A DNA stretch of 64,000 nucleotides, from positions 32,922,001 to 32,986,000 of the forward strand of contig OZ076416.1 in NCBI GenBank assembly GCA_964187785.1, written 5' to 3'. The position numbers and the translations under genes are program-made. The number at the start of each line of letters is the position of its first letter. Positions within the stretch are counted from its first letter, which is position 1. Positions 29,481 through 52,559 of this stretch are shown one piece after another. The stretch comes from Amphiscolops sp. MND2022 (lineage: Eukaryota). Under the pieces are notes generated by a model, which saw only the letters and a program-made list of their open reading frames with translations, did no database searches and was not told where the DNA came from.

Positions 29481-30214
29481 TGTAACGGAAAGCGCTTAGC
29501 GTTTATCCGCTACGCAGGGCGGAGGAACTGAAGTCATAGGTAATGATCCGGGACTGATCGCCATGATTCCAGTTCATTTTGTCCTCCTAGGGAGTGCCGG
29601 TCCCGAGAAGGGAGAACCGTCTCTAAGGATGCTTTCTGACCGGTTCCGGTCTGTAACTGCTCCTAGTCACATGAAATACGCTTTTTTCCTCGTATCCACT
29701 GTGTAAATAGCCGGTAAAAATTATGTTAGGCTGCACAGAACTGAATTAAATGGCCCAGATGGAAATCCATCAAAATGACATTAACTTTTACAGAGGTAGC
29801 TCTCGAGTAAAGAATTCATCAAACAACTAATTAACACGTCAAAAGGGCATGAAAATCCAGTTTGGCAAGTCTAAAATCACGCTGGGTGGCATGGCACTGG
29901 TTCTTGGGTTCGACACAACTCTAAGTCCTGGCGCTGCAATCACTCGGACATGCTGATTCCGTCTGATTTTCGATGGATACCGTGGGAATTAGAGCATAGG
30001 CTTACGATTTTTTGATTTCGTGACGTTGTACGCACTTCTCTTGTCGTTGTGTCAATTTTTTTTCATTTCGCGGGCCTTGTCAATCCACGCTCTCTATGTT
30101 TTTGCGGGACTGGTACTTCGTGAACACATGTTTGAGGGCCACGTCACTTTTGAACGAAATTTTCAGAAAATCGTCAAACTTCGAAAATTTCGTCGGTCAC
30201 AGGGTGCCGTTACA
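29481..30214 (-). repeat. 3' LTR of the giant Gypsy
   Basis: TGTAACGG...CCGTTACA termini; colinear with 51800-52514. Confidence 0.9.
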
Positions 30215-30224
30215 TCCACTCCCT
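30215..30224 (-). other. Polypurine tract
   Basis: The minus strand reads AGGGAGTGGA immediately before the 3' LTR TGTAACGG. Confidence 0.7.
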
Positions 30225-30993
30225 GGGCTCCTGGCTTGTCGTCCCTGGCAAGCATCGGGGGTTTTCGTCTGAAGGCAGGATAATGCCCATGCTGTGGATA
30301 CATCTTGAAGTTGATGTGCCGTTGCATAGAACAGCCACTTTTGAGACATTGCCTTTTCGGATCTTATCGCAACTTTACTACAAGACCTACTATTTTTTAC
30401 AAAAAATTGAAACGTTCGTAGCACCAGCTCGAGAGCTTGCGCTTCTAAGGTGGCTTAAGCCATTTTTATCATTGGTGAGGACTAAAATGCCTTTTGCGTC
30501 AAGTGCCTGCTAAAATGTCTTTGTCTCATTTTTTGTAGAGATCTATTTTTTGCACTTTTCGTTTAAAACATCTTTTCTCAGGAGCGTATAAGCTCCGTTC
30601 ACAAACAGACAGTCGATAGAGTGTACAAGACTCAGCTAAAGGGTATCAATTGGAGTTTGAAAGATTTTTTGGCTTGACTGTGCCTCCGCACCTAGTTTTT
30701 TTTTGACAACGCCAAAGGCGTTTGTTGAAAGAAAACTTTGTTAGCTTGATAATTTTTTTTCTCAAGAGCTTTATTATCGTAATGCTAGCACAAGGGGCAG
30801 GCGCACTCTATGACCATACACCCGAGGCATAAATTTGAATCAAACTGTCTAACTAACAACAGTTAACTAAAATTGCACCAATTGAAAGCAGCATCGTAAA
30901 AAGGCTATGAGGTTTTTTGGAGTTTTCATTGCGGAAGGCCCAGCTTCCCTTGATTGATTGATAAAGTTTCAGGTTCGTTAAAACGTCGACAGT

Positions 30994-33900
30994 TCATTGA
31001 ATAGCAGATTTGTTCCTGCTTCGAGGAGAGACTTCTCTTGGAGGTGAGGCATCGCTCACTGACGCTCGTCGGACTGGCGAAGGCACAACAGTTTCGACAT
31101 CGGTATCAATAGTGAGATCACCGATGGGTTCTGCCAGCTCTACATTTGGGGTCAACTCTGCTGCATGTTCTCCAGAAGGACTAGGAGTTACAGGCATAGC
31201 TGTGTTATCTGCTGTAACTTCCGCTTCATTGGTATTAGCTTGTACCGTCAATGGTTGCTCCAATGACATCGCCATAGTAGGAGGCTGTGACTGTTGTGGC
31301 GCATATCGAGCAACGCGTTCTTCTTCAGCACGGTGGTTGGCTGCCAGGGTTACACGCTTTGATACCCAGTCAGCTTGCTTCCAGAGTGCGCAAGCTTGTT
31401 TCCATACGTCGAAATTGCTGACTTCCAGTTTGAGGCATTCCTCGTCCCATTCGGCGCGCATTTCTGCGCCTAACACCTAGTTCACTATGTCCAATAACGA
31501 CAACGGCATATCTCCGGACATGATCATGCGTCCTTGTGGGCGCCAAGCAGGCTCGTATAGTAAGGGGGCCATTCTACGTGACAGGTTGCGATCACGCACT
31601 GATGCCGCCACGTGAATCCATTTGGGTACATTGGCCACGTCTAAGTGCCGTAGTTGGTGATCCAGTAATTCCTTCCCGCGTCCAGTTGGGCGTGCGCGAG
31701 GGTAGCCTACTGGTTCTTTCCAGTAGCGATTGGGTACCTGGATGAATTTAAACTTCTAGTCCGATCGGACTTGCGGGCTAAGCTGCAAGCAGGGAATTAT
31801 CACTGTCTTGATAAAGTTTGACGACCAAGGAAACCGGAATGGTTGTCCATTTAAATCAACGGGAGCATTATACCAATTGATGGGACCGTATTCCCTTGGT
31901 AAGACGGCGGCTTTGCGCGAACGGGCACGGACAACACCCATCATATTATCCTCCACTTGTTGCTCAGTCTTGACAGTGGTATACGCTTGGGGTACTTCGC
32001 CACTGTAGGTTTCTCGTATCATTTGTGCATAGCTCATAGGCGGGCTTCCCTGAAGGTACGTGAAGATGGATACCGTTGCAACATGCACTGCTAAGGATAC
32101 TGGCTTGGTTGGATAGCGTAGTAGTCCAAGAGCTCCAAAGATTGGAATTAAAACGGGAGCTACCACTGGAACTAGGTCCTCTACTTCGGCTAGCGTCAGG
32201 TCAGCCAATTGTTGCGGCATCGGAAAACCCGGGTTTTCACGAGGCAATCGCGAGTCCGGATCGTGTGGGGATTGAGCTTAGTCCACTCCTACAAATAATC
32301 CTGATGCATAGATCAGTGTGGAATAGAGCCAGTGTTGCACGGAAGCTCTCATTTGGAACAAATGCTCCGTGTAGTTGTGCCCGTTTGGTGTGAAGAGAAT
32401 TTCTCCACACCCAAGCAAGCTGGTCGGTTTTCCTTGAGCCAAGAGTAGGTATGTGTAGAATTCTTATACTCCAGTGGATGTGACCAAGTCTACAACAATG
32501 GCTTGCGGTCCAGCTACGAATTTGGTAGGCCCAAGGGCTAGCGCTAGTGCTAACACCTCGTTTACCGAAGTTTTTTTTGCTAAGAGTCACGGCCTCATGG
32601 GCTACAATATGCCTCATGCCCGGTGGCATTTTGATGATTTCTGTGTTGTCTGCGAATTGAATTTGGGGAATGGTCCTTTCGACCTCACAATTAAGTGGTC
32701 ATCGATTCAGTTGATCCCAGACTGCTGCAAGGTCTGCCTTGATGGTGTTGGGATGTGCTTCGCGCACCAGCCAGTTGTATCTGCGCATGTTCTCGCGTTC
32801 TGCGATGGTTGCTTCTGAGCCAATTCGTTTTCCTGTTTCAACTGGTCCAACTGGCAAAAATAATGCGACTGGGTGGAAGTTCACTCTGAGGGCCTTTGGG
32901 AGAGAATAGGGCTATAGCCACCTCTGCCCTTTCAGGCAGTCGCAATAGAGGCATAGTCACAACCAATACGTCAGGAATAACGTTGTCGAGAGGAAGGTTG
33001 CATGGGACCGTTGAATCAACCATTACGCAGTAACGTGTGCGTTGAATTGCCTCTTTCGACATTGGTTTCATTGCTTTCAGGCTTCTAGGGTATTAGCTGT
33101 GGGTTTCCCAGGTTTCACCTGGTCGTATATCTGCCCCTTCGTTTCACCAGCGAATATCTGGCCTTGCATTGTTCATGTAAGTTGTTTTGCATAGGACGAA
33201 GATAATTGTCATGAGTCGTTGTGAGTCGGCTGATTACTCGTTGTTCCCACGCTGCTTCGCCTGTATCGGCGTCGAAGGGGCGCAAAGTTCGTGTCACATG
33301 GACGATTACCGACAGCTTTCGCAGTTGTGCCTGGTGGGTGTTGGTCGGTGGTACTCTTCGGCGGTCACGGTATTGTCGATCGTTTAACTTGGGGGCGACT
33401 TGCCAAATGCGATTAGCATCTCTCGTTACCACGGACCCTGATACATTGTCCGATTGTGAGGAATACGATGGGCCCGTGAAATTCTTCACAGACTTTGCTG
33501 TCGAGGAGCCTGAGTGCATTGAATTGTCGGTGCTCTCTGGCACAGATGCGGGGCTCGGAGCATATCATTCCATCACTTCTTTCATCGTCATCTGGGGTTC
33601 GGAGATGCCATGGTGGCCTACTTCTTTTTGGTTCCTGTATCACCACAGAGCGAAGTACATTGTTTCGCTTGTCTGGCGGAGAACAACTCGTTGGACTATC
33701 ATTGTTGCCAACCAATTGAGCCAGCTCATGTGGCGATGCCCTTTTGCGGCCAAGTTCTTCATCAGATACGGGCGACAATCCAGGTTCTGACGAGGGCGCT
33801 CGATTTCTGGTCGCGGTAGTACTAGGCGTCAGTGGGTCGGTGCTTGGACCTTGACCTTCTCTCGTGGTCAGACAACCCTCTTGTTGTCCCCTGCTTCCTA

Positions 33901-36900
33901 AAAGATTCTGCAATCCTGGCATTTGTCTCGAGACTGTCTCTACGAAATCCCTGGACTCGGGGTATCAATAGTGAGATCACCGATGGGTTCTGCCAGCTCT
34001 ACATTTGGGGTCAGCTCTGCTGCATGTTTTCCAGAAGGACTAGGAGTTACAGGCATAGCTGTGTTATCTGCTGTAACTTCCGCTTCATTGGTATTAGCTT
34101 GTACCGTCAATGGTTGCTCCAATGACATCGCCATAGTAGGAGGCTGTGACTGTTGTGGCGCATATCGAGCAACGCGTTCTTCTTCAGCACGGTGGTTGGC
34201 TGCCAGGGTTACACGCTTTGATACCCAGTCAGCTTGCTTCCAGAGTGCGCAAGCTTGTTTCCATACGTCGAAATTGCTGACTTCCAGTTTGAGGCATTCC
34301 TCGTCCCATTCGGCGCGCATTTCTGCGCCTAACACCTAGTTCACTATGTCCAATAACGACAACGGCATATCTCCGGACATGATCATGCGTCCTTGTGGGC
34401 GCCAAGCAGGCTCGTATAGTAAGGGGGCCATTCTACGTGACAGGTTGCGATCACGCACTGATGCCGCCACGTGAATCCATTTGGGTACATTGGCCACGTC
34501 TAAGTACCGTAGTTGGTGATCCAGTAATTCCTTCCCGCGTCCAGTTGGGCGTGCGCGAGGGTAGCCTACTGGCTCTTTCCAGTAGCGATTGGGTACCTGG
34601 ATGAATTTAAACTTCTAGTCCGATCGGACTTGCGGGCTAAGCTGCAAGCAGGGAATTATCACTGTCTTGATAAAGTTTGACGACCAAGGAAACCGGAATG
34701 GTTGTCCATTTAAATCAACGGGAGCATTATACCAATTGATGGGACCGTATTCCCTTGGTAAGACGGCGGCTTTGCGCGAACGGGCACGGACAACACCCAT
34801 CATATTTTCCTCCACTTGTTGCTCAGTCTTGACAGTGGTATACGCTTGGGGTACTTCGCCACTGTAGGTTTCTCGTATCATTTGTGCATAGCTCATAGGC
34901 GGGCTTCCCTGAAGGTACGTGAAGATGGATACCGTTGCAACATGCACTGCTAAGGATACTGGCTTGGTTGGATAGCGTAGTAGTCCAAGAGCTCCAAAGA
35001 TTGGAATTAAAACGGGAGCTACCACTGGAACTAGGTCCTCTACTTCGGCTAGCGTCAGGTCAGCCAATTGTTGCGGCATCGGAAAACCCGGGTTTTCACG
35101 AGGCAATCGCGAGTCCGGATCGTCTGGGGATTGAGCTTAGTCCACTCCTACAAATAATCCTGATGCATAGATCAGTGTGGAATAGAGCCAGTGTTGCACG
35201 GAAGCTCTCATTTGGAACAAATGCTCCGTGTAGTTGTGCCCGTTTGGTGTGAAGAGAATTTCTCCACACCCAAGCAAGCTGGTCGGTTTTCCTTGAGCCA
35301 AGAGTAGGTATGTGTAGAATTCTTATACTCCAGTGGATGTGACCAAGTCTACAACAATGGCTTGCGGTCCAGCTACGAATTTGGTAGGCCCAAGGGCTAG
35401 CGCTAGTGCTAACACCTCGTTTACCGAAGTTTTTTTGAGTGTTTCGGTGAGTCTTTGCAGCTGTCCGCCTGTCAGGTTGAACTCGTCTGCAATAACGTCC
35501 ATATGCGAACTCAATCCAAAACTTGTCAGAAATGCTTGGAAAGAGACAGATAAGGTCCGTGCGGTCAATTCTAGAGTGACTGTGGCTAGGCGATCATTAT
35601 ACCAATCCCCGTAAGTGGCCTCTTTGGCTTGGACCAAATTGCTAGGGGTCACGGCTCCATGGGCTACAATATGCCTGATGCCCAGTGGCATTTTGATGAT
35701 TTCTGTGTTGTCGGCGAATTGAATTTGGGGAATGTTCCTTTCGACCTCATAATTAAGTGGCCATCGATTCAGTTGATCACAGACTGCTGCAAGGTCTGCC
35801 TTGATGGTGTTGGGATGTGCTTCGCGCACCAGCCAGTTGTATCTGCGCATGTTCTCGCGTTCTGCGATGGTTGCTTCGGAGCCAATTCGTTTTCCTGTTT
35901 CATCGAAGGTTAGCGTGCCTAGACGCATTCCATGGTCGAAATATATTGCATCGTCCCTCGTTAGTTGGGCTTTGCCACCACGTTCCACTTGTTGCAATGA
36001 ACGTGATATTACTGCCAAGTATGCGTGTACTGAGACTGCAGCAGAACGTAAGTCGTCTTTTCTGACGCGTAAGTTATGTGCGCATAGGTAGAATTTGATA
36101 TTGCGAGCACTGCAAATTTCTGTTAGCATGTAGACAAACTGCTGGAACATTCCTACCCAATACAACATTCCAGGGGGAGAGACGAACATCGCTGGCACTT
36201 TTAGGTGTGTGCGGAGCAACTCTGCCGTACGCTCCATTGCAGTCGCCACTCAATGTAACACCTTGATTACTTAATTTCTGGCCGTTTCGTTGTTTGACAT
36301 CTCGCGCAGCAAATGGGGTAGATTTCCCAATAGACCTTCGCAGGCCATGTGGTCCATCAAATTGGCAAAAATATTGCGACTGGGTGGAAGTTCACTCTAA
36401 GGGCCTTCGGGAGAGAATAGGGCTATAGCCACCTCTGCCCTTTCAGGCAGTCGCGATAGAGGCATAGTCACAACCAATACGTCAGGAATAACGTTGTTGA
36501 GAGGAAGATCGCATGGGACCGTTGAATCAACCATTACGCAGTAACGTGTGCGTTGAATTGCCTCATTCGACATTGGTTTCATTGCTTTCAGGGTATTGGC
36601 TGTGGGTTTGGGTACATTGGCCACGTCTAAGTGCCGTAGTTGGTGATCCAGTAATTCCTTCCCGCGTCCAGTTGGGCGTGCGCGAGGGTAGCCTACTGGC
36701 TCTTTCCAGTAGCGATTGGGTACCTGGATGAATTTAAACTTGTAGTCCGATCGGACATGCGGGCTAAGCTGCAAGCAGGGAATTATCACTGTCTTGATGA
36801 AGTCTGACGACCAAGGAAACCGGAATGGTTGTCCATTTAAATCAACAGGAGCATTATACCAATTGATGGGACCGTATTCCCTTGGTAAGACGGCGGCTTT

Positions 36901-39866
36901 GCGCGAACGGGCACGGACAACACCCATCATATTTTCCTCCACTTGTTGCTCAGTCTTGACAGTGGGGTACGCTTGGGGTACTTCGCCACTGTAGGTTTCT
37001 CGTATCATTTGTGCATAGCTCATAGGCGGGCTTCCTTGAAGGTACGTGAAGATGGATATCGTTGCAACATGCACTGCTAGGGATACTGGCTTGGTTGGAT
37101 AGCGTAGTAGTCCAAGAGCTCCAAAGATTGGAATAAAAACGGGAGTTACCACTGGAACTAGGTCCTCTACTTCGGCTAGCGTCAGGTCAGACAATTGTTG
37201 CGGCATCGGAAAGCCCGGGTTTTCACGAGGCAATTGCGCGTCCGGATCGTGTAGGGGTTGAGCTTGGTCCACTCCTACAAATAATTCTGATGCATATATC
37301 AGTGTGGAATAGAGCTAGTGTAGCACGGAAGCTCTCATTCGGAACAAATGCTCCGTGTAGTTGTGCCCGTTTTGTGTGAAGAGAATTTCTCCACACCCAA
37401 GCAAGCTGGTCATATTTCCTTGAGCCAAGACTAGGTATGTGTAGAATTCTAATACTCCACCGGATGTGACCAAGTCTACAACAATGGCTAGCGGTCCAGC
37501 TACGAATTTGGTAGGCCCCAGGGCTAGCGCTAGGGCTAACACCTCGTTTACCGAAGTTTCTTTGAGTGTTTCGGTGAGTCTTTGCAGCTGTCTCTCAGGC
37601 AGGTTGAACTCGTCTGCAATGACGTCCATATGCCAACCCAATCCAAAACTTGTCAGCAATGCTTGGAAAGAGACAGATAGGGTCCGTGCGGTCATATCGA
37701 GAGTGACTGTGGCTAGGCGATCAATATACCAACCCCCGTAAGTGGCCTCTTTGGCTTGGACCAAATTGCTAAGAGTCACGGCCTCATGGGCTACAATATG
37801 CCTCATGCCCGGTGGCATTTTGATGATTTCTGTGTTGTCTGCGAATTGAATTTGGGGAATGGTCCTTTCGACCTCACAATTAAGTGGTCATCGATTCAGT
37901 TGATCCCAGACTGCTGCAAGGTCTGCCTTGATGGTGTTGGGATGTGCTTCGCGCACCAGCCAGTTGTATCTGCGCATGTTCTCGCGTTCTGCGATGGTTG
38001 CTTCTGAGCCAATTCGTTTTCCTGTTTCAACTGGTCCAACTGGCAAAAATAATGCGACTGGGTGGAAGTTCACTCTGAGGGCCTTTGGGAGAGAATAGGG
38101 CTATAGCCACCTCTGCCCTTTCAGGCAGTCGCAATAGAGGCATAGTCACAACCAATACGTCAGGAATAACGTTGTCGAGAGGAAGGTTGCATGGGACCGT
38201 TGAATCAACCATTACGCAGTAACGTGTGCGTTGAATTGCCTCTTTCGACATTGGTTTCATTGCTTTCAGGCTTCTAGGGTATTAGCTGTGGGTTTCCCAG
38301 GTTTCACCTGGTCGCAGCGAATATCTGGCCTTGCATTGTTCATGTAAGTTGTTTTGCATAGGACGAAGATAATTGTCATGAGTCGTTGTGAGTCGGCTGA
38401 TTACTCGTTGTTCCCACGCTGCTTCGCCTGTATCGGCGTCGAAGGGGCGCAAAGTTCGTGTCACATGGACGATTACCGACAGCTTTCGCAGTTGTGCCTG
38501 GTGGGTGTTGGTCGGTGGTACTCTTCGGCGGTCACGGTATTGTCGACCGTTTAACTTGGGGGCGACTTGCCAAATGCGATTAGCATCTCTCGTTACCACG
38601 GACCCTGATACATTGTCCGATTGTGAGGAATACGATGGGCCCGTGAAATTCTTCACAGACTTTGCTGTCGAGGAGCCTGAGTGCATTGAATTGTCGGTGC
38701 TCTCTGGCACAGATGCGGGGCTCGGAGCATATCATTCCATCACTTCTTTCATCGTCATCTGGGGTTCGGAGATGCCATGGTGGCCTACTTCTTTTTGGTT
38801 CCTGTATCATCACAGAGCGAAGTACATTGTTTCGCTTGTCTGGCGGAGAACAACTCGTTGGGCTATCATTGTTGCCAACCAATTGAGCCAGCTCATGTGG
38901 CGATGCCCTTTTGCGGCCAAGTTCTTCATCAGATACGGGCGACAATCCAGGTTTTGACGAGGGCGCTCGATTTCTGGTCGCGGTAGTACTAGGCGTCAGT
39001 GGGTCGGTGCTTGGACCTTGACCTTCTCTCGTGGTCAGACAACCCTCTTGTTGTCCCCTGCTTCCTAAAAGATTCTGCAATCCTGGCATTTGTCTCGAGA
39101 CTGTCTCTACGAAATCCCTGGACTCGGGGTAATTTGCCACTGCCTGTAATGCTTGGATTACAGCTTGTTCACTGGGAGTCCTGTGCGACATGTCAGGTGC
39201 CGTTACGCCTGACCGCATGGAAGGTGGTGCGGAAGACTGCACTGATTGCACTCTGGCACTGGTCATTGGACTGGAGGTGCCTGCTTTTGATTCTAATCGT
39301 GGAGTGGCGCTGAGAACAATATGCGGAGCATGGGCTGCGGGAGCAATGGCATAGGGCGCTACTTGTGCTGCGGATGGTGTTGTTGGTTGGGCACTTGGCA
39401 AATACATCGGCGGCTGAGTTCCCGACTGCGGGTGTATCTGTGATTGAGGTTGAATAACCAAATGTGCCGGGTTCAAAGGTTGTGGCATAGGCACATTTGC
39501 AAGTGGAATACGCAAGGTAGCCTCTTATTCCACAGTCGTTTGTACACTGGGGCCTCTCACTGCAGTGGATCTATCATCAAGAAAGGGGTGGGTTAGGTCA
39601 TAGCCATCCCATACTCCATTTCGACAGGTCATGGTACGTTTGTACCCTGCCACATCTGCTACTATAGATAGAGCTAGACTGGCTAGAGTAGGCTGAGTCT
39701 CCAACTGTGCTAGGAGAGCAGTGATCCCAGCCACAGCTGCCGTTGCGCAGTCTCTCCTCAATAAACTGCACCTGATTAACTCGCTGAGTTCACGCAGCGT
39801 TTTGATTGGGTTGGGGTTGGGCAGGCATAGCTGCATAGGCCGTGTGATGGTATGCCATCGTATCAT
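30994..39866 (-). pseudogene. Accessory ORF3 of the giant Gypsy (Pro/Gln-rich region + SGNH-like domain + unknown C-terminal region), fragmented and internally duplicated
   Basis: Same-frame fragments 39525-39866 and 38580-39515, then 38282-38710, 36397-37272 and 35323-36249, ending at 30994-31476. Several blocks are present two or three times. Confidence 0.65.
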
Positions 39867-40115
39867 GGGTCTAAAAAGAGATACTTGTTAAAGCTATTAT
39901 ACGGATGCTGATTGGTGCCTTGTTAAAACCAGTTCCATAAGGGAACTCGTCAATGAAAAACATCACTAAAGTCAATGATAAATTAAATACAGGAATGCTG
40001 AAGCCATTCTTTTTAGGGTTTAAGTGAGCAACTAATGTTTAAATAGAGTGTACAGCACAGTAAAATTATGTAGAATAACCGTGGTTCACGGCTACCTTCG
40101 GTTTGGGAGATGGCA

Positions 40116-42454
40116 TCAAGGTGGTCTAACACCCACTTCAATGCCTAGAATAGACACGTACACGTGATTGTGCAGTACTACGTGTATGTTCGTGTCTGCG
40201 AATAAGTCCATCATCACCCGATACAGGTTAGTCAGTGAGTATACTGGTCTTTCAGGAACCAGTATGGAAAAATGGATCTGAGGAATTACCCTGTCCCCTA
40301 GCCATGCCACTAACTTCCTCAAGCATAGCATTACGATACACATGCCGGTACGAACTATCAGGATCCTGCTAGTTCGATTTTTGTCCAATCAGAGCGCGAA
40401 TATTTTTTTGGAAGTTTTACACTTGTCACACATTACGCGCATTGATAGGACGTTACACTAGTTGACACAGCTTCGTACGTTGACTAGTTTACACCATTGG
40501 ACAATACAGTAATTGACTAGTTTACACCATATGACTAGTTTAAGCAATTTGACTAACTCCACTGTGCATCTCATATTTAAACATAGTTCTGGTAATTACG
40601 GGTTGTTACTGGTGAGCTACACACGCCGACTCATTACTACACTGTTTGATTCGCATACACAGTATCAAATCGCATAAACAGTAAATCTGACTACAGGAAG
40701 TGCTCACGACAGGGACCAAAATTACCAAGTTCAATGAAGCAATCGCCCCTTCATTATGAGACCTACTTTGTTAGGTGACCATATTCATTTGTTTGGGAAG
40801 ACTTGGATGGGGGGTGTTGTTGGATAAGAAACAGTATTTATCTGAGGGAGGATAAGGCACATGGTCCAAACTTCGTTTTTAGTTCAATATTTCAAGATCG
40901 GTATTCCATAAACTACTGTTTTCGGTTTGATAAAGTTACAACTTCGTATAGACTATTTGTTACAACTTTTCTTGATGTTGCTCACGACAGGGATCAAAAT
41001 AGATCCTTGCCAATACACTGGCTCAAAATACCCAGACCAAAATAACAGGTTATCCAATCATTCCGGTGACTGTGCTCACGACAAGGACCAAAATTAAAAT
41101 TAGTTAGGCAACTATTAATGAGGGCTGCTTTGAAATAATGTTTTGTTAAAATAGGAAACCTGTGTTGACAGATCAATCAATTGTACTAATTAGAAGCTAC
41201 AAGGTATTTTATTTGCACGTAAATGCGTGGATGAAACACACGTGTTCACGTGTGCAACTTGCATTGAATGCAGTTTATACGTACTGTGCACGGTAGAGCT
41301 CAGTAATGATAACTAATTGTTTATTGAATCATTGTTTACTTTGACTGGTTTACGATGCTGTGGTATGAATTGGAATTAAAATGAACACTGAGTTTTGAAT
41401 GCATATAAACATGGTGTAAGTTAGTCAAACCTTTGACTAACTTCCACTTATTGCAAGTATAGCGATCTGCAATTTGCAAAAAGCGGAAGTTAGTCAAAGT
41501 TTTGACTGAATTACGAAAAAGAGTTTTTTGGACTAACTTCCACTTTTCACTAACTACGTGTTTTGACTAGCTTACACTATTTTCCATTACGCGCGTTGAC
41601 ACAGCTACACCGTTGAAGCATAGACCGTCTTGCCTAACTTACGCTGAATGACCATTTTACGGATTACACAGATTACGCTGCTTGACTGAAATGCAGCTTA
41701 CCGGTACGTGTATCGTAATGAGTAGAAAATCATCAGCTATCAACGGCGCACGTTGATTCGCGCGTGTGATCAGTAGGTGTATTGTTTGGGTGGGCTTATT
41801 GGTAATCGTGGGGTTCAGAGTAAGTATTTCTCCAACTAGCCGGCGTAATGAGAACACTTGCTCTTTGCCGCATTCCCGCAAGATGTAGCGTAGCGCTGCC
41901 GAACTTGTTTCCAAGTCCGCTGGACATGTCAAGACAATGTGTCCTTCAGCTTGTAGAAAATCAGTAGTATCGTATGAGATATGTTCTACTGTGTCGGGAC
42001 GCAGATTACCTGGATATACTATTTCTCGACCAGGTCCGTTGTCCGCAGGTATACACACACGTGGTGTACGACCTTGTATGCTGGCTAGATCCTGCCATAC
42101 AGAGCGTGGTAGTGCTTGGTTGTCTACGTTTGCTCGAACCCAGATGTCCAGTGTGCTTATCGCTGCTTTGACTTGTAGGGGTTCCTCAAAAGTATGGATC
42201 CATTCATCCAGCAAACGGATTCGCGGATAGTCAGTGAAACACGTGATGATTAGCTCTAACCACCAACGGAATTTCACCTTGCCCTGATACCAATCTTTCA
42301 AGTGGGAACAAAGAATCAGGTTTTCTGTCGTGGAAGTCCTGAGACTCTCTAAGCATAATAGCAAATGCTGCGGATCCACTAACGCGTCGACGCGGGATGC
42401 GGTTACCATGAGCCACCAGTATGGGGCTGGGCTGTAGATGCTGTCTGGTACCAC
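40116..42454 (-). pseudogene. Accessory ORF with a TARG1/OARD1-like macrodomain, split by a DNA transposon
   Basis: Joining 42454-41721 to 40326-40116 gives a stop-free 314-aa frame: ISYDTTDFL..HIVLTCPADL..VGEILTL..IHLLITR..DDFL|LCLRKL..LYRVMMDLFADTNIHVVLH. Confidence 0.7.
40329..41720. mobile_element. 1392-bp non-autonomous DNA transposon (CACTA/CMC-like), 22-bp TIRs, 2-bp TSD AG
   Basis: CATTACGATACACATGCCGGTA vs rc CATTACGATACACGTACCGGTA (20/22). AG flanks at 40327-40328 and 41721-41722. Subterminal TTGACTAG/TTGACTAAC repeats. Confidence 0.85.
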
Positions 42455-43399
42455 AGTGGCTAGCGTAAGCCCTAAACCTTTGCCATCACTGGTCTATTCT
42501 TTGAACCTGGGACATGGTGCTTTTGCAACGCCTGGTGTCACGATTGGCTGCAAAATTGTCTCCACTGGATATTTTCCAGTCCGTTCTACCCCAGAGAAGG
42601 TTTTTTCTGCTCGTACATGGATGCGGTAAACTTGTTCGGTATGCTGCCGTCCCTCCTGGGGGACTCCCCGGGCTCCAGTGGGAACATCCCGCCTTTCGTT
42701 CATTGCCTAGCACGCATCAGCAATCGCGTAGGCCACATGTGCCACATTTGTATCTGGGCTGTCGTCTGTGTCTCAGTTGGTATCGGTTCTGAGATGCCGT
42801 TTGGGTGCTCGGTTTTAATTTTGGTACTTTGGGCACTGTTTTGCCCTTGGCTTTTTGCTGATGAGTTTCTTTCCGAGGTCTCCCCCTCCCCCTTTTGATA
42901 GAAGGAGCGGTGGGTGGAGGTTGTGGTGACTTGACCGAGGGTATAGATCCTGAGGTAGTCGGTTAAGGAAGGTTGAGTCAGCAACGGAGCAGAGGTACCC
43001 ATTGGGGATAGCTCCGGAGTTTTACTTGACTGTGAAATGTGTGGTGAAAGTGAGCGCATTGGCTCATGATCGGAAAACAGTTGCGGGAGACCGCTGAGCG
43101 TCGATACATCTGATAAAAGGTCTGGTACCGATGGGTCGGTGATTGCTTCAGGATGGGGTTGGGTGTGAATTTGTTGTGGGGAGTAGGTGGGGATGGGAAG
43201 CAACTCGTCATGCGTCTCTTCGTCTGTGTCGGAAGTGGAGTAGTCGAACTGCTGGTAATGCTGTCGGGTTCCTCCCGCGCGCAGCTTTGTGCGCAATCGC
43301 GTGTCCATCCAGTGACGCTGACGAGAAGGTAACGAAGCATTCGAAGCCTCTGAAAGCAGTGGCTCAGATTTATAGGAAAGTTTAGAACAGTCATCATTA

Positions 43400-46300
43400 A
43401 TAGGTTCGATGGAGTATTCAGGCTCCGGGTCAATGGCCACGGCTACGTCGCCGGTATCAAGAGGAGAGTCGACAAATTTAAGGGGGCCACTACTACGCGG
43501 TTTGAGAGGATGTAAACACGTCCATCTTGTATGGTGTGCGACACACGGTGTGGGCCACGCCAAGCGCCCATTAATTTGAAAGAACCTTTTTGGGGAACAT
43601 ACCGACAGAAAACCCATACTAATTGCCTTTCGCGTAGGCTTTGGCCCTTATGGCGCGATCGTATTTAAGCTTTTGTCGCAGCTGAGCTTGGTGTGTGTTT
43701 CTACGCACCAGGTCATGAATTTCCTGTTGGCGCGCCAACACATGGTCTACATACGCATCATGTGTAGGAAAAGACTGAGTGGCAAACTCAGGGTACAAAT
43801 ATGTAAGAGGTATAGCTTTTTCTGTACCCCGGGTTAACATATAGGGTGAAAACCCTGTGGTTGCATGGCGTGTAGAGTTATACGCGCCAAGGACCTCATC
43901 CAGGTGCTGGTCCCAGTCGCGCATTCGACGCGAACAGGAAACGCGTAATAACGTGAGCAAAGTACGGTTTTGGCGTTCCACTAAGCCTTGCGTACGTGGA
44001 TGGCCAGCTGTGGTGGTTACTTTGTGACCTGAGAGGCCTTCATGAATTCATTGGAAACTTCCGCCGTCCGATTGCATCCGGGTGGGTAGACCATGGCGAG
44101 CGAACCTCTGAAGCAATAATCGGGAGGTGGTGATGACGTCATTTTCGTCATGACTACAAGGGATGGCTTCAGCAAATTTCGAGAAATGGTCAATTATGAC
44201 CAAGATCTCGGTATTACCGTCATCAGTGGGACAAATTTTCATGTGATCATAATGCACCAACTCATTAAAGTTTCCACTTTGAATGTTTTTGAGGAGGAAG
44301 CGTACGTCTCCAGGCTTGTCTCTGACCTGTTGGCACGTGAGACACTGGCTGACGTATTCGCCCACTGTGCGGCGTATCCCATTCCAGGTATGGCGTTCTT
44401 GTATGCGAGCCACTACCTTGCTAATGCCTTGGTGTCCCATGGCATCATGTGCACGATAAAGGATCTCATGTTGGTACAACTGAGGCATCACAATCATGCA
44501 GGGTCGCTCATGCAGCGGACGTTGTGAAGCCGGGTATTTCACACAATGAACACCGTTTGAGTTCAAGAACAGTAACTCCTTCTTTTGTTTGAAGTAGTTG
44601 CGGGCAAAAGTACGAACATCTTCTGGAAAGATGTCTTGATTTATGTCTTCTCCAAGGACTAGCCTTTTGATCTCCGATTCTGGGTCAATACCAGGTCCTT
44701 AATCCCATGGACAGTGTGGGCATGTTCGTGAAGCTCAGTATTCACACTGCGAATGGCCATTACTGCCTGCTTGATGTGGGTAGGCGCATTGTGCAATGTT
44801 GCGCCTTCGATGTTGGCCACGTCATAGGTAGTACGTGAGGCAATGTTGGTTGCATGCGTGGGCAGTAAATAATCAAGTCGAGTTTCTTCAGTGACATCTA
44901 TCCAATCTTCTGGGTACTCAGGATAGAAGTCTTTGTTGGCGTGTAAGATGGGAGGTGGCGGTGAGGGTAGTTGACTGTGTAAGGCTTCGGTCCGCTTAGC
45001 TCGCTTTTTTGCTCGTTTTGAGCGACGAATCACGCGTTGAACCAGATCAGGGGGAATTGGTTGTAGATTCTTCAGGTGTATTGGTAACTCAGGATGATTG
45101 GGAATTATCCGTCCTTGCTGATCAAACCAAGGTGCGGTGGGGAGCCCTTCGTATTCGTCCTGGGATAGGAAATTCCAACGCTCTGCAACTTGTGGTAGTT
45201 TTTCAAGCTGTCGTTTTCTCCATCAGCAATCATTGGTGCGTTTGAACAAACCATCGGCATTGCGATGTTGCGTTCGTGGTCGATGTTCGACACGGAAATG
45301 GTACTTTTCCAATGCCATGATCCATCTGCCAATAAGAGCTTGATCCGTGGAATACGTTTTTAGCCATGAAAGTGCTTGATTATCCACTCTCAGTGTGAAC
45401 TTTCTTGGACACAAGTAGCTGTGGTTTTTGACGACGAAATGATATGCCGCGTACATTTCTAGCTTCGGTGCTCCGTATTTGGCTTGGGTGGCAGTAAGTT
45501 TTTTGCTGCCATACACGATGGGGCGTAGGCGCCTTTCTCCTGGTGGGCCTTGCCACTGATGGAGAATGCCTGAAAGTGCAACAGCACTGGCATCAGTATC
45601 CTGCACAAATTCTCCTTCTGAATCCGGTTGCGCCAGAGCGGTGGCATCGATGAGTGCTTTTTTTTATTTCGTTGAAAGCCAATTGTTGTTCCGTTCCCCA
45701 AGCAAAAGTGGCTTTGATGCCAGTGATCGCATGCAGGGGAGCCACCAATTTGGCGTGCCAAGGAATAAACTCACAGTAATAGTTGGCGAAGCCTAGAAAG
45801 CTTTGCATCTGTGTTTTGTTACGCGGGATTTCCCAGTCACGTGCCAATTGTCAGTCACGTCCCATTTGGCGTGCCAAGGAATAAACTCACAGTAATAGTT
45901 GGCGAAGCCTAGAAAGCTTTGCATCTGTGTTTTGTTACGCGGGATTTCCCAGTCACGTAGCTTCGAGAAAGCCTTGGGATCCGGCTTTATTCCTTCTGCT
46001 GCCACTACGCGTCCAAAGTACTTGATCTCAGACTTCATAAAGTCGCATTTAGCAACTCTCAGTTTGAAGCCGGCTTCTCGCAAGCATTCAAAAACTTCGC
46101 GAAGTCGTACCATGTGATCCTCCACTGTATATGTGGCGATAACAATGTCGTCGATTTAGGCCATCACCATGCTACCTTCACGATTCACGATCTTACGTAG
46201 GGCCCGTGCTATTGCTCTTTGGAAGGTGGCAGAGGCATTGCACATCCCGAAGGGCATGCGTCGCCATTCAAACAGTCCTAGCTCGCAGGCGAAGGCAGTT

Positions 46301-47111
46301 TTTTGACGGTCGGCTTTTGGGACAGGGATTTGCCAGAAAGCCCAAGCTAAGTCTATACTTGTGTAGATTTTATCTTTGCCCACTTTCACTGGCGCGGGGA
46401 CCACAATCTTCATGGAGGTCAGATCCACGAGCAGCTGGTAGGTTCGGAGGAAGTTAAGACCTAGTAGGAAGTCCTCCACGCCCATGGCATCATCCACTAC
46501 GAAAAAATTGGTTTCAAGTTATTAGCATCCTAGCTGGAAGCGGTTCTGCTCTCCCAATCCAAAGGTCTTGATTGTCTTGTTGTTGGCGGCATACAAGTCA
46601 ATTTGGTACGGTTTCAGTACAGTGCCTGTTTGAGAGGCTATACGGTTGAAAGCTGAAAAGTTCAGGATAGATACGCCAGAGCCTGTGTCAACAAGGCCTC
46701 GCAAAGGGATTGGGCCGCCTGGGGCACAACGAAGGAGACTACAAGTGAGGCGCGCTCGTCTATCCGTGCCTCACCAGTAGGTTCTTGATGATTAATGTTA
46801 TAACACTTGAGTTCCTGCGCACCCAAGCAGATTCCAGGAGGAAAGACGTCCACCACTACACAGGCTTCAAACATCACATCTACTCCACCCATGGTGGCGC
46901 AGATGGGCACGGGAGAATAGGTTGTGAGTGTGTCAGAGTCCCCTGGGGCGTACCATTCCTTCGGACGGGGTATTTCCACACGTTTGTATAAGGTTTGTAG
47001 TTCAAGCCACAGTTTGGATAGCGTTAATGTTGTCCTGCGCAGTTGTTCTGCAGCTAACATTAGGTGGATAGAGATCGACCCTGGGGGTCGAACGTAGTTG
47101 GCTCTAGACAA
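43400..47111 (-). pseudogene. Gypsy pol (protease, RT, RNase H, integrase) with many frameshifts and stops
   Basis: LVDTGSGVSI (PR); IDLAWAFWQIP, MPFGMCNASATFQR (RT); TDASAVALSGIL..KLEMYA..VDNQAL (RH); HDAMGH..CLTC, DHFSKF..SD, ERQNRTL (IN). Confidence 0.93.
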
Positions 47112-47202
47112 GTTTGGACTTGCTTTGCGCCGCAGGTGATAGTCAGTGGGGTGTAGAACGCAGGTGGTTCCGCTGGGTGTAGCATTAGCACGCGGTCGTC
47201 CT

Positions 47203-49766
47203 CTAATGGCACCGTTGGGCAGCGACCCCGGCTGATTCTACCTCTGTCCATCGATTGTGAGCGAGTTCTTTGTTTGGAATTACAAGATTTCCAGTGCACG
47301 GCGAGTCAACATGGTCGAATATGCCACAGTGAGCGCATTGGCGAATTCCAGGATAGTTGTCCGGAATCCCATCAGTCACGTCTTCAGCAGTTATTTTTAT
47401 TCCTTCTGGTTCTGGCGCAACTGCAGGTTTGCGAGCTTGGTCGCGATTGGGGCAATCTCGAGCGAAGTGGCCAGTCTGGCCACAGTTGAAACAAGCGCCT
47501 ACTGGAAGGCGTGCTACAGGTGGTGCTGCTGCCGCATTTGCTAGGGCGTTGTTTACGGGAGGTGGTAGTAGAACCCCTTGAGGAAACACCATCTTGTTGG
47601 GTGGTAATGGTGCAAAGGGATGAGGTCTTGATCTCATGGCATATCTGGGATCATACGGTACAGACTTAGGTCGAGTACGTTGCAATTGTCGGGTCGTGAA
47701 TCGCAAGGATTCTACCGTAGGATGTTCGCTAACAGTGGTCTCAGACGCATAGATGATGGACAGTTACCTTCGTAGGACGGGATGACGAATACCCTCAATA
47801 AAGCGCTGGAGGATTTCGTAACGTTTGGTTGTGAGAGGCTCTTCAGGAAAACCTTGGCTTCGAAGTCCTTCCAGGGCGTCCAAATACTGCATCCAGTCTT
47901 CCCTGTCGGATTGCTGCCGGGTGGTGAAGGCCTGGCGCACCTGCATGCGATTGCCTCCAGTCTCAAATCGACTAGCTAACAATTCGAATACTTTTTCAGG
48001 GGTATGCCTTTCAGACTCGGCTTTGTTGATAATGCAATTGGGAGTTTCACCTTCCAGGTGTCCGATGATGCTCCATGCTTTATCGTCGTGGGTTGCCTTG
48101 GCATGCGTGCGCTGTAAATAACGGCGCATCAAGAGGATCCAACCATCAATGGATCCTTCCTTGGATCCCCTGTAGACGCTAGGCTTAGCTTGCGTTTGGT
48201 CACGTCCAGCCAGCAAAGTGGCCAGTTCTTTGGACATTGCCTTTGAAATGGCGGCTGTGAATCGCAGCTGCTCTGTGGATATTACTTCCTCTCCCTCACT
48301 AGGGGCTGGAGAATTATCTTGACTGCCTCTAGTGGCTTGCACGATTCGCATTATCTTTCTGGCGAGTACTGCTGGCACAAGGTTTGCCTGTGAGCATTCC
48401 TTCGCTCACAGTCAAGAACAGTGAATTGGTTCCAGTCCTCATCCTGGCGGTAGCGTAGGCTTCGTCCTCTGTGCTGCTAGTGTGTGAACCAGCAGTTGCC
48501 CTGGTATCGGTCAAGTCAAAAGTCGACAATGTAATCAGCATTGGGTCTACTCCCTGATCCCGGGATTAGGTCAGCGACGTCGCCGGTGGTTTTGAGGTGT
48601 CACTGAGTGGGTTGGGCATAAATACGTGCACTTTTGTGGTTCTCTTATTTATTGGTGGTGGTATGACTACTTTGGGCTGAGTTTTGGGCTTGTCTTTAGC
48701 GTTATTGACGGGTTGGGGGTGCGCATAGGCACCATCTTACTCGTGGATGCAATAGGTTCGGCAGTTTCAGTGTGCTCTGTCTCAAGGGTCCTTGTGTGAG
48801 ATACAGTTCCACTTTGAGTGCGTATCTGATTACTGAGTTCAGCCAGTCGTGCTTCCACGCGGAGTTCGCGCTGGAGAAACAAGTCCTTCATTTCCTCCAA
48901 TCGATAGCCCATGGCGTCTACTTTTGCAGCTTGCACTGTTGGGTCGCGCTCCTCAGGCTACCTTTCACGAAGTCCTGCAGGGCTTTTATTTCTGCAGTCA
49001 TAACCTTGTGCTGTTCATTGCATTCGGCACGGGTATCGGCCAGACGTGCTAAGGCTCGTTGGGCTTCAGTTTCCGCTTGCAACATTGCAGTCCGTGCAGC
49101 AGCGGCTTCCTCGACAGCCCGATAGGCCGAAGACCTTCGTGATGAGGTAGTGGACGTGGCACCGTCGCAAGCTAACTCGTCCTGCACACACAGTGTTGGA
49201 GGACGCGTTTTTTGCTTGCCAGAGGTTTTCGCTCGACAAGCCTTCAGGCGATACTTAGCATAATTCATTCCATTGATATAAGTCATGCCCTCCAAGATAG
49301 TATCGGTATCTTTACTAGCTGGGCTGTCGTTGTCTTTGGGTGATTCAGAGCACCCAATGCGCACGGGGGTTACTTCCGCGGCCGTTTGGTTGGAGTTGGG
49401 CCACAACCCAGTCGTTTGAGGCGATGTTAACTCACCTCTGTTGTCTTGGATCCATTGTCCTGTGCGGAAAAGTTCTTCCGATAGGGGTGAGTTCAAGGCC
49501 ATAGCATTCTGCTCTTCTCGCCGTTGCTGATCGTTAGTAACGCAGTCACTCATTGCTTCTGAAAAGGAGGAACCAGTCGATAATGACTTCGTAGGTGGCC
49601 AGTCTCTCAGACTCACCTGACTTATAGTGTCTGAACTTTCGCGTTGGGTCGAGCTTATCTTTTGTAGTTCGCTCGAATCGGTAGCGTCAGACGCATTGGG
49701 CTCGCTATCTTCCTCCGTGCTATACGTGAAAAGTCGGACTACGGTTGCTACGCCCGCCCAAAACAT
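47203..49766 (-). pseudogene. Gypsy gag with a long N-terminal extension and CCHC knuckle, fragmented
   Basis: Fragments 48918-49766 (coiled coil), 48667-48936, 47764-48378 (YRGSKEGSIDGW..IIGHLEGE capsid-like) and 47203-47706 (CFNCGQTGHFARDC). Confidence 0.85.
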
Positions 49767-51765
49767 GATGCTTCTCCTATTGATCTAAGATACGTCACAA
49801 GATGATGCACCAGTATCTCCAGTTTCGACTCACTGGGCCGTACTGCCGTTCGTCCGTACCTACTTCTCGAAGCGTTGCCGGTGTGACAAGCGTCCAACCT
49901 GACTACGAGGTGTCCTGAGGTCACCCAATCCGCTCCCAGGGGCCACCGAAGTGTATGAAACTATGTCAGGCCTCCAGTCGTCTCGTGTGGACTTAAGCAA
50001 TTTTCAACTACAGAAAGCCTCGCGAAGGTCAAAATTGTTTCCGAGAGCCGTAGCGGGCTCAAAATCACACACGTAGTAGGTTTTCACACACAAGTCCGGA
50101 AAACGAACTCAGATCGGGTTTAAATCATCTACGAAACGGTCAGGAAGAGTTTACAACAATTTTTGTTTTTTCTCGAACAATGTTAAAAACAACACAAGTG
50201 GCACGTATTCGTCACTCAAGGGTCGGATCTAGCTCAAAATTGACCAGAGGATCTTGCACACACGTAGGTACAAGGAGTTGAGCACTAACACGGGCTCCGA
50301 GGATTGTACACTGTTTTGCCTTGGTACAGACGTGCGGTACTCCTATGTATCAATAGGGGTTAAAATGTACTCTAGTTACATAATCTCTAAACACTGGTTG
50401 CAGTCAGCGGTATGGTTTTTCCGCTAGCAGTGTGCGAACTAGTATCTGTTACGTTGGTGAGCAATAAACTGTTCTCACTCTCCAGCTAGGGTATTCGGGT
50501 CTTCCCAAAAAACCTGGAAAAAACGGCCTTTTTGTACCTGTTTTTATGCAATACGTTTCCGTCAATCTCTCAATAGATACTGCACTAATCGACACCAAAC
50601 TTGGCACACAGTGCCAGTATGTACCTACAATGCCGTTAGGATAGTCCAATTGCAGTGCTTGGGCTTGCGGAGGATTTTGGTAGATCTGGACACTACTTTT
50701 GAAAAAACAGTCTTTTTTGACACTTTTTTTCACAAATCAGCGAAGAAGGTTGACACCACAAACATTACGGCAGGGTCAGTGGGGTTAACGCATTAACCCA
50801 CGGGTCGTAACAGTATCACCAACTCTCAATTGGCAGTACCCGTTCGGTGTAGGACACCATCGGCTCTACAATTTCGGCTTTTTTAAGTTATTTCGGTACT
50901 ATTTTAAGTGGAAACGTTAGGGAGTTTTTCTCAATTTTGGTGAGAGCTATACCCACCAAATTTTCGGTACGAGTGTTTGTTTCCATGATAGTTACGAAAG
51001 TGTAACCACGTTTCAGCTAGGGTTTGGGAATCTATGTCCCAACCGTGGCAATCAGACAGTCCGGTTTTGTGGAATTTCGATCAAATTCAGTGCGTTTTTC
51101 CACTTTTCTCAGCACTGAACTGGAATTTTTGCACGCGGTTTTCACCACGATGCGTAATTTTTATTGCAAAAACAGCAAATTAGAGCGCCTAGGCTCTTAA
51201 GGTTGATTTAAGTTTTGGTTAACAGGGTTTTTCACACTATTATCTACAAGGGTCAAAAACAGTCGAAATTGCGAGAAATTCACATTTTTCTGGTCTTTAT
51301 ACCAGTAAATCGATCAGCCAAAGCTACTTCCAGTGCCCTGGGGTTGTGATTCACCCAAGAAACTCCTCTACAACAGTGCCCCAGGCTTCTATATCTAGGT
51401 GCGATAGTGAATTTAGGGTGTTTTCCACCCTCTTTCCCAGTTTTTGCGTTTTTTTATTGCAAAATTCCACTCTTTCGCCTAAAAGGGTTACGAGAACCTT
51501 TGAGCATTATTTTTCTCAGTTCCCGCAAGGTTCGAGGCTACTTTTGCCAACATACTGACAATGCTAACTTGGATTGACGGAGTGCCTAGACTCCTACCAA
51601 AAAATGCTCGAAAAACACGAAAATTCGTCCTGCGGCCAAGAACACATGCAATCGGTTAAAATAGGAGCAAAACTCTGGCTTCTCCTTCAGAGTCGAAACT
51701 GTCTTGGCGCTGAACACCGGAGGGTCAGATATTTTAAAACCATGCAGGAAAGCTTCCCAAAGACG

Positions 51766-51783
51766 ATCCCTCTGTGGTCGCCA
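51766..51783 (-). other. Primer-binding site, tRNA-Arg-like
   Basis: The + strand ATCCCTCTGTGGTCGCCA ends in CCA and resembles the 3' end of metazoan tRNA-Arg(UCG). The minus strand reads TGGCGACCACAGAGGGAT. Confidence 0.7.
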
Positions 51784-51799
51784 AAAAATGATGCTCCTA

Positions 51800-52514
51800 T
51801 GTAACGGAAAGCGCTTAGCGTTTATCCCCTACGCAAGGCGGAGGAACTGAAGCCATAGGTAATGATCCGGGACTGATCGCCATGATTCCAGTTCATTTTG
51901 TCCTCCTAGGGAGTGCCGGTCCCGAGAAGGGAGAACCGTCTCTAAGGATGCCTTCTGACCGGTTCCGGTCTGTAACTGCTACCAGTCACATGAAATACGC
52001 TTTGTAAATAGCCTGTAAAAATTGGGTTAAGCTGCATAAAACTGAATAAATTGGTCCAGATGGAAACCCATCACAAATGACATTAACAAAAACAGAGGTA
52101 GCTCTCGAGTAAAGAATTCATCAAACAACTAATTAACACGCCAAAAGGGCATGAAAATCCAATTTGACAAGTCTAAAATCACTCTGGGTGGCATGGCACT
52201 GGTTCTTAGGTTCGACACAACCCTGGGTCCGGGCGCTGCAATCACACGGACATGCTGATTCCGTCTGAGTTTCGATCGATACCGTGGGAATTAGCGCATA
52301 GGATTACGATTTTGTTGATTTCGTGACGTTGTACGCACTTCTCTTGTCGTTGTGTCACTTTTTTCCGCCTCGCGGGCCTTGTCAATCTACGCTCTCTATA
52401 CTTTTGCGGGACTGGTACTTCGTGAACACATGTTTGAGGGCCACGTCACTTTTGAACGAATTTTTCAGAAAATCGTCAAACTTCAAAAATTTCGTCGGTA
52501 ACAGGGTGCCGTTA
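51800..52514 (-). repeat. 5' LTR of the giant Gypsy
   Basis: TGTAACGGAAAGCGC...GTGCCGTTA, colinear with 29481-30214 but with many substitutions and an ~18-bp indel. Confidence 0.9.
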
Positions 52515-52559
52515 CGTACACTCCAGTCTAATTTTTGTGATAAAGTATTTAGATAGTTT

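Follow-up and report, generated by a model that had tools for sequence, protein, structure and literature searches.

The stretch of Amphiscolops sp. MND2022 DNA analyzed here (the window: 64,000 nucleotides, positions 32,922,001 to 32,986,000 of contig OZ076416.1, assembly GCA_964187785.1) contains a decayed long terminal repeat (LTR) element, which spans 29481–52516 on the minus strand as delimited by self-comparison. It belongs to a lineage of large Ty3/Gypsy elements with a lineage-specific target site duplication (TSD) of 3 bp and a primer binding site (PBS) placed 16 nt from the LTR. The gag-pol open reading frame (ORF) of these elements ends in two macrodomains that have lost their catalytic residues and are maintained by purifying selection. 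A second ORF, ORF2, with an SGNH-like domain is under the same selection and is absent from one family, E. An earlier note, made from the window's sequence alone, had proposed a giant Gypsy lineage with macrodomain and SGNH-like cargo. Such a lineage is real, and its cargo is family-wide and selected, with the correction that the macrodomain pair is fused to pol. The joint reading, held at about 60%, is that a pseudo-macrodomain tether would sit on an integrase with a 3-bp stagger, complemented by an optional ORF2 pseudo-esterase for targeting to membranes or particles. What is strangest about the lineage, its 3-bp TSD and its spacer of 15–16 nt between LTR and PBS, does not appear in the earlier note. 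The interest rests mostly on the lineage-specific stagger and on the natural comparison of families with and without ORF2, not on the 23-kb size.

Families and gene content

The genome (1.07 Gb, 13 large contigs) was surveyed, and 36 loci were examined and sorted into eight families, A to H; the window copy belongs to A. First-look searches gave 1,039 LTR candidates and 3,851 macrodomain-region candidates, figures that are not copy numbers. Of the 664 kb surrounding the window, 12.7% belongs to the eight families. Membership in Ty3/Gypsy (Metaviridae) follows from LTRs with TG...CA ends, a tRNA PBS and a polypurine tract (PPT), from the order gag, protease (PR), reverse transcriptase (RT), RNase H (RH) and integrase (IN), and from an RT closest to Ty3, with Ty3 Gag-Pol as the best PDB match. 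The unit measures 17.5–19.3 kb, apart from family E (15.0–15.1 kb) and one internally deleted A copy (14.6 kb).

Young copies carry an ORF1 of 3,111–3,193 amino acids (aa), comprising gag, PR, RT, RH, IN, a linker and the macrodomain pair, and an ORF2 of 1,397–1,479 aa. The single ORF1 was seen in copies of B, E and F, while A, C and D are each represented by single copies with a frame unbroken from the integrase, or earlier, to the macrodomain end. Gag and protease are in frame with pol in intact copies. The earlier note had allowed that other copies with this LTR might lack the accessory ORFs. Among the ten other family A copies with paired LTRs, the macrodomain region is present in nine and ORF2, at least in part, in all ten.

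A non-coding leader of 2.7–3.4 kb precedes gag. Between B and F it is 83.5% identical over 3.3 kb while synonymous divergence (dS) runs from 1.3 to saturation, a conservation far above that of synonymous sites, which makes a structured RNA likely. The three leader/LTR loci submitted to Rfam gave no match. The leaders contain no clearly conserved ORF, just short frames tracking DNA similarity, and none was found in the 3' region of family E. The leaders of B and F contain a short internal duplication. A 5.1-kb element with lineage-type ends (G000:C8:33017566-33022697), LTRs 99.6% identical, a 3-bp TSD and no RT, is a young non-autonomous derivative of the lineage.

Target site duplication, primer binding site and integrase

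The TSD was scored in 36 insertions. It is an exact 3 bp in 31, has one mismatch in the three bases in 3 and measures 4 bp in 2; mismatched flank pairs, taken as a control, agree in 42/1,260. Copies with incomplete, nested or tandem ends were left out (A_C11a, A_C12, A_C13, B_C7, B_C10, C_C13, E_C9c, F_C10, H_C2 and G_C6). A 664-kb control region added four further lineage members, all with 3 bp, giving 35 of 40 lineage insertions, and seven unrelated LTR elements with a called TSD, all with 5 bp. Two solo LTRs outside the 40 showed one exact and one mismatched 3-bp duplication. Preferences for A/T occur at positions −3 and +5 (29 and 31 of 32) and are symmetric about the middle base, which fits an odd stagger.

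The lineage thus departs from the 4–6-bp TSD usual for Ty3/Gypsy. A table of Drosophila Gypsy families lists 4 bp (PMC3276498), and a review gives 3–6 bp for LTR elements overall and 4–6 bp for retroviral integrases (PMC10045372). Since the reviewed range begins at 3 bp, the duplication lies at its rare edge and has precedent, and membership in Ty3/Gypsy stands. An origin of the 3-bp duplication outside the integrase, whether through host repair that shortens a gap of 4 or 5 bp or through wrongly set LTR ends, would agree with the two 4-bp cases and with the 4–6-bp cuts of retroviral integrases (PMC10045372). It is, however, highly improbable given the canonical TG...CA ends of young copies, the 5 bp kept by all seven unrelated elements of the same region, and base preferences centered on the middle of three bases.

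The PBS reads TGGCGACCACAGAGGGAT and fits the 3' end of a genomic tRNA-Arg(TCG). It is shared by families A–D, G and H; the PBS of E differs. The tRNA-Arg pattern has 262 matches genome-wide, and those listed lie mostly in one array. This tandem array of tRNA-Arg genes (G000:C9:57537788-57575367, period about 173 bp) corresponds to the primer tRNA of the lineage. The spacer between LTR and PBS measures 15–16 nt in every family checked, conserved in length and not in sequence. In the integrase, SDNA stands after the second catalytic Asp in 8/8 families, compared with xDxG in 13 relatives. The Ala in place of Gly after this Asp is a candidate residue for the 3-bp stagger, as a lead only. A cysteine motif, RYKCGTCG-x-R-x-C-x-C, stands upstream of the macrodomain pair (42732-42755 in the window) and is kept in A, B, G and H; it is possibly a small zinc site.

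Macrodomain pair

The macrodomains form the C-terminus of the gag-pol ORF, where two TARG1-like domains follow the integrase and a linker. The fold assigned in the earlier note was borne out. The separate accessory ORF that it had proposed was rejected because young copies have the single ORF1, with one frame from gag through the macrodomain pair. An AlphaFold2 model of the last 340 aa (32 alignment rows; mean predicted local distance difference test score, pLDDT, 67.6) contains two alpha/beta domains. Macrodomain 2 aligns with human TARG1 in Foldseek (E 8.1e-11, TMt 0.82) and in VIA (Z 16.8, rmsd 2.5, 139 residues aligned), and qualifies as a fold of the TARG1/OARD1 (ALC1-like) type. Macrodomain 1 was assigned by profile only, as a homolog of macrodomain 2 (hhalign 70.6%, against 0.17% for the reversed profile). 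Pfam gave no match on the macrodomain pair or ORF2 of families A–H, and PDB sequence searches with both were blank or spurious.

TARG1 requires Lys84 and residue 125 and reverses ADP-ribosylation of proteins and nucleic acids, as described in PMC7050489, from which the residue numbers are taken. The mapping onto the present alignment is in part tentative. In 8/8 families Lys84 is replaced by Arg, the Asp at 125 by Pro or Ser, and both Gly loops by NSA and LDPER; the latter places acidic residues in the diphosphate loop. Both domains are nevertheless constrained, with ratios of nonsynonymous (dN) to synonymous divergence between B and F of 0.03 for macrodomain 1 and 0.04 for macrodomain 2. Loss of catalytic residues at such ratios indicates that the pair is needed, likely not as a hydrolase, and a non-catalytic binding module is the likely function.

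Pols from other assemblies (P0329-31, P0333, P0339-40), with RTs 44–55% identical, end in a Macro domain recognizable by Pfam, that of P0333 matching TARG1 with E 4e-22. The A–H macrodomain profile recovers five of these pols (E 3e-21 to 2e-7). Related pols retain, to differing extents, the ITK lysine and the GCGxD loop, and P0318 carries a degenerate pair. In P0339 and P0340 the Macro domain stands after RNase H, and no integrase was found within the ORF. Two further Gypsy polyproteins of 3,700–3,900 aa, P0338 and P0341 (RT 44–46% identical), end in a UPF1/SF1-type helicase (AAA_11/AAA_12).

ORF2 and its SGNH-like domain

ORF2 comprises a conserved N-terminal domain, a linker rich in Ser, Thr and Pro, an alpha/beta domain of 200 aa and then helical and C-terminal domains that make up about 600 aa. 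What the earlier note called an SGNH-like ORF does contain SGNH-like motifs, but in just about 200 aa of an ORF of 1,400–1,480 aa. Within the alpha/beta domain, xDST, P(G/L), NxxDH, PPG and xRP follow one another in the order of the SGNH blocks. If the blocks are correctly aligned, Ser alone is kept of the catalytic S-G-N-H, short of what defines an SGNH/GDSL enzyme. The block-I Ser occurs in all 10 rows that cover it (12 rows in total), the catalytic His is replaced by Arg, once by Gly, in 12/12, the oxyanion Asn has become hydrophobic, and the block-II Gly is found in 1 row. The domain is likely a non-catalytic binding module. Since catalytic residues are lost in the macrodomain pair as well, both modules likely bind rather than catalyze.

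The ORF2 profile matches the second, GINDH-bearing domain of the protein P0320 with an hhalign score of 29.6, compared with at most 16.8 in 30 shuffles. The first domain of P0320, an intact GDSL domain, gave no match, its score of 12.8 falling in the range of the shuffles. P0320 represents a sister lineage with an RT 56% identical, and its GDSL domain has the motifs GDS, GG, GTND and DGIH (Pfam E 8.8e-7). The protein consists of a pol fragment joined, probably via a deletion, to the GDSL domain and then to the degenerate SGNH-like domain; judged by this arrangement, the sister family may carry an ORF with an active and an inactive esterase in tandem. No GDSL-bearing sister family was found among the stretches of this genome examined, and no relatives of the P0320 GDSL domain in the JGI metagenomes or plasmids searched. 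The evidence for descent of the ORF2 domain from SGNH proteins is modest, and such descent is quite probable.

An enzymatic role in counter-defense, suggested in the earlier note, would have ORF2 act as an active esterase and the macrodomain pair remove the ADP-ribosylation that the host places on viral proteins or cDNA ends. It could draw on the TARG1/DarG-like fold and the known activity of TARG1 (PMC7050489), on outgroup pols that retain Lys84, Asp125 and the GCG loop, on the persistent block-I Ser of ORF2 and on the intact GDSL domain of P0320. The role is nonetheless quite improbable: the replacement of the hydrolase residues in all eight families, with the acidic LDPER loop, argues against it, as do the substitutions of His, Asn and Gly in ORF2.

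A check of selection, which the earlier note had advised, showed both modules to be under purifying selection. The folded parts of ORF2 have a dN of 0.11–0.16 between B and F at a dS of 1.6 to saturation; across the macrodomain pair and ORF2 together, dN is 0.07–0.16 at near-saturated dS. ORF2 diverges faster than pol (28% against 66% identity between B and G), and the families rank in the same order by ORF2 identity and by integrase identity. A profile search with ORF2 retrieved 678 proteins (E≤0.001); most of the 150 listed are close to the families of this genome. P0214 and P0218 have no match above 33% here, so ORF2 is present in at least one other genome. No relatives were found in the prokaryote genome contigs searched.

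In agreement with the earlier note, no Env-like transmembrane (TM) signature was found in ORF2. It lacks a signal peptide and a clear TM anchor, the features of errantivirus-like Env proteins, and contains one Pro-containing hydrophobic stretch (KD 1.6–2.3). An acceptor-like TTTT(T/C)AG lies 4–105 nt 5' of the first ATG in A, B, D, F, G and H, and in C by eye; no splice donor common to A, B, C, D and F was found. The acceptor-like site suggests a putative spliced RNA of the env type.

Family E has the macrodomain pair, the 3-bp TSD and LTRs 99.4–100% identical, and no ORF2. In the RT tree E groups with the ORF2-bearing families G and H at a support of 99, and the eight families together form a clade supported at 100. 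From this nesting, and because E has copies with 100% identical LTRs without ORF2, E most likely lost ORF2, which transposition can do without. Its absence from an active family argues against an essential role in particle assembly, the other function considered in the earlier note.

Proposed mechanism

The elements would follow an ordinary Gypsy cycle primed by tRNA-Arg. ORF1 would be translated as one polyprotein, so that each packaged Gag would bring along one macrodomain pair, unless the pair is removed by cleavage and lost. The pair would descend from an ancestral TARG1-like enzyme that stood at the C-terminus of pol, was duplicated and lost its ADP-ribose pocket. The resulting pair may now bind chromatin, protein or nucleic acid, comparable to the chromodomains or methyl-CpG-binding domains (MBDs) on other integrases. 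The integrase would cut the target with a 3-bp stagger and would have to trim about 16 nt off the U5 end. ORF2, in the position of env, would be expressed from a subgenomic RNA and aid spread or localization, unneeded for transposition as such. By analogy with the ZfL2-1 esterase and the rotifer GDSL ORF3s, ORF2 is likely an optional membrane- or particle-targeting factor.

An extended version combines a 3-bp-stagger intasome, U5 processing of about 16 nt and a pseudo-macrodomain reader that steers the intasome from its place on the integrase with a 1,400-aa pseudo-esterase that replaces Env in particles passing from cell to cell. Such Env-free infectivity, which would have helped the lineage to take up about a tenth of the host genome, is rather improbable.

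Several observations weigh against the joint reading of tether, stagger and targeting factor. The RT tree stems from a quick search with SH-aLRT support only and contains no named reference elements. Two of the 36 insertions have a 4-bp TSD, one of them within a T run, and the target sites showed no bias other than the weak A/T preferences. The ORF2 model is of low quality (pLDDT 43 overall, about 68–88 over part of the domain). Among its fold matches SGNH enzymes are frequent, at Z 4–6 (at most 6.1, to TAP), tied with unrelated folds and beginning at the second strand. Pfam and PDB sequence searches returned nothing for ORF2. The near-invariant Ser, Asn and Arg of ORF2 could also form a changed active site. 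In addition, Foldseek with the whole ORF2 model gave nothing at E≤0.001. The ESM Atlas gave no usable match for ORF2 500–760, the top hits (0.88) being unnamed clusters; one cluster at 0.86, with Macro in 22% of its members, is a lead only.

ORF2 might instead be a non-catalytic silencing suppressor or host-binding regulator unrelated to membranes, its SGNH likeness being a scaffold or a chance alpha/beta fold. The lack of a signal peptide or clear TM segment, the weak and tied fold matches, the loss in one active family and the fast divergence, frequent in host-interacting proteins, are in line with this possibility. It is considered unlikely, since no sign of positive selection appeared in the family pairs tested, and both the motif order and the profile match to the GINDH domain of P0320 fit SGNH.

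Comparison with known elements

Within Ty3/Gypsy, the lineage differs from Drosophila families by its 3-bp instead of 4-bp TSD (PMC3276498), and from the group in general by the distant PBS, the gag-pol ORF of 3,100 aa with its macrodomain tail and the long leader. In searches of the open-access literature, no description was found of a 16-nt PBS spacer together with a 3-bp TSD in any Gypsy family, of a degenerate macrodomain pair fused to the integrase, or of macrodomain and SGNH-like cargo combined in Gypsy elements, a combination that the earlier note had likewise not recognized. The lineage resembles the 412/mdg1 elements in its tRNA-Arg primer, and the RT tree contains no named members of the 412/mdg1 or Osvaldo clades.

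The single ingredients have precedents in the published descriptions: SGNH-type ORF3s in LTR elements, macrodomain ORFs in fish endogenous retroviruses (ERVs), and giant multi-domain Gypsy elements. The bdelloid Vesta and Juno elements share a non-env accessory ORF after pol, an SGNH-type domain and a family-specific presence. Their GDSL/SGNH ORF3s are described as retaining all of S-G-N-H (Rodriguez et al., 2017; PMC5408684), whereas Ser alone is kept here, the domain lies within a 1,400-aa protein, and a macrodomain pair is present in addition. The ORF1 protein esterase of ZfL2-1 and other CR1/L2 elements is a further transposon-borne SGNH domain, which according to its authors may target ribonucleoproteins to membranes and is weakly catalytic (Schneider et al., 2013; PMC3905857). 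It differs in its non-LTR context, its ORF1 position and its intact triad.

Planarian Burro and plant Ogre elements have in common with the lineage a large size, a huge polyprotein, extra domains and very high copy number. Their cargo as reviewed includes BIR, MATH, env and ankyrin domains (Arkhipova and Yushenova, 2019; PMC6431247), none of which appeared in Pfam scans of the lineage. At 15–19.3 kb the present units stay below the 20-kb bar set for giants in that review, whose text does not contain the word 'macro'. Epsilon-like ERVs of fish also captured a macrodomain (Basta et al., 2009, cited in PMC4977317). These are retroviruses with macrodomains described as additional ORFs, in contrast to the duplicated, degenerate pair fused to the integrase.

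Human TARG1/OARD1 and DarG share the ALC1/TARG1-type fold; identity is 13%, and the catalytic dyad and Gly loops are gone in the lineage. The tandem macrodomains of the SARS-unique domain (SUD; 8ufm), which is not known to bind ADP-ribose, are a functional analog and align over both domains (Z 7.8).

Structure of the window copy

All coding remnants of the window element lie on the minus strand, and Pfam detects CCHC, RT, RNase H and integrase arranged as in Gypsy elements. The earlier note recognized one LTR element with matching LTRs, PBS and PPT. Its bounds held for the LTR pair and the shared TSD, with the right end at 52516 instead of 52514 and a TSD of 3 bp, TAC (29478..29480 and 52517..52519). 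A 5-bp duplication, CGTAC, was rejected. Independent insertion of the two LTRs was rejected as well, as both share this one target duplication. The 3' LTR (29481..30214; TGTAAC...GTTACA on the minus strand) is adjoined by the PPT (30215..30235), and the 5' LTR (51800..52516) is followed by the 16-nt spacer (51784..51799) and the PBS (51766..51783). In this copy a G replaces the plus-strand terminal A of the element. Its two LTRs are mismatched at 46 of the 715 bases aligned, so the copy is old and broken.

The leader (49600..51765), conserved between families at the DNA level, precedes gag and protease (46384..49600). As the earlier note stated, gag has a long N-terminal extension (about 520 aa); a PNMA-like capsid region, a CCHC knuckle (47452-47493) and the protease (46675-46695) are present. 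RT, RNase H and the RH–IN spacer occupy 44672..46460, with the N-terminal RT deleted and a stop codon in place of the Y of YIDD. A frameshifted integrase (43500..44671; HHCC, core and C-terminal part) is followed by the linker rich in Ser, Thr and Pro that had also been noted (42500..43500). The end of the gag-pol ORF contains macrodomain 1, partly deleted, with the N-terminal part of macrodomain 2, both TARG1/OARD1-like (41721..42490), and then the C-terminal part of macrodomain 2 with the ORF1 end (40130..40328).

Macrodomain 2 is split by a nested, non-coding element of 1,392 bp (40329..41720) with terminal inverted repeats (TIRs), ends CATTACGATACAC, a 2-bp TSD (AG) and an internal inverted repeat (41416-41514). 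A full-length copy, 93% identical, lies nearby (L206:952-2335). The element is presumably a non-autonomous DNA transposon of the CMC/EnSpm type.

A splice-acceptor-like site read from the sequence (TCTTTTTAG|A; 39870..39879) lies just 5' of the ORF2 ATG (39858). The ORF2 remnant (30994..39858; about 1,430 aa if intact) has stops and frameshifts and is partly triplicated, with DST motif copies at 38198-38215, 36520-36537 and 33009-33026. Its duplications extend over 31102..39131 and pair 31102-32577 with 33961-35436 (99.6% identity), 32577-33964 with 37766-39131 (98.1%) and 34480-35902 with 36607-38029 (95.4%). They were not seen in the other family copies examined and may be real or an assembly artifact.

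The transposon and the duplications, both reported in the earlier note, inflate the window copy, so its 23 kb reflects decay and was rejected as the unit length. The 16–17 kb estimated there without insertions falls short of the intact relatives of 18–19 kb, as about 975 bp are also missing from this copy at 46383, and about 590 bp at 51627. A 116-bp tandem duplication occupies 45745-45958.

The flanks do not share the TTAGA(T/C)C-rich repeats attributed to both sides: seven exact matches occur in the left 300 bp and none in the right 300 bp (17 and 5 with one mismatch). Left of the element lies a different Gypsy gag (27287-28534), cut by an assembly gap (28535-28734, a run of N); on the right, a decayed non-LTR RT (52655-54696) starts about 140 bp past the element. 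The segment 28813-29344 reappears inverted at 57302-57837.

Significance

LTR finders whose default settings demand a TSD of 4–6 bp, or a PBS no more than a few bases from the LTR, would miss a lineage that covers 12.7% of the 664 kb examined. The solved retroviral intasomes, as reviewed, cut 4–6 bp apart (PMC10045372), and a high-copy, recently active family with a 3-bp stagger is a natural variant in which to ask how TSD length depends on target bending. The gradation from intact TARG1-like domains to a duplicated pseudo-macrodomain documents an ADP-ribose enzyme that was captured by a retroelement and kept after loss of catalysis. Families with and without ORF2 in one genome provide a natural knockout comparison.

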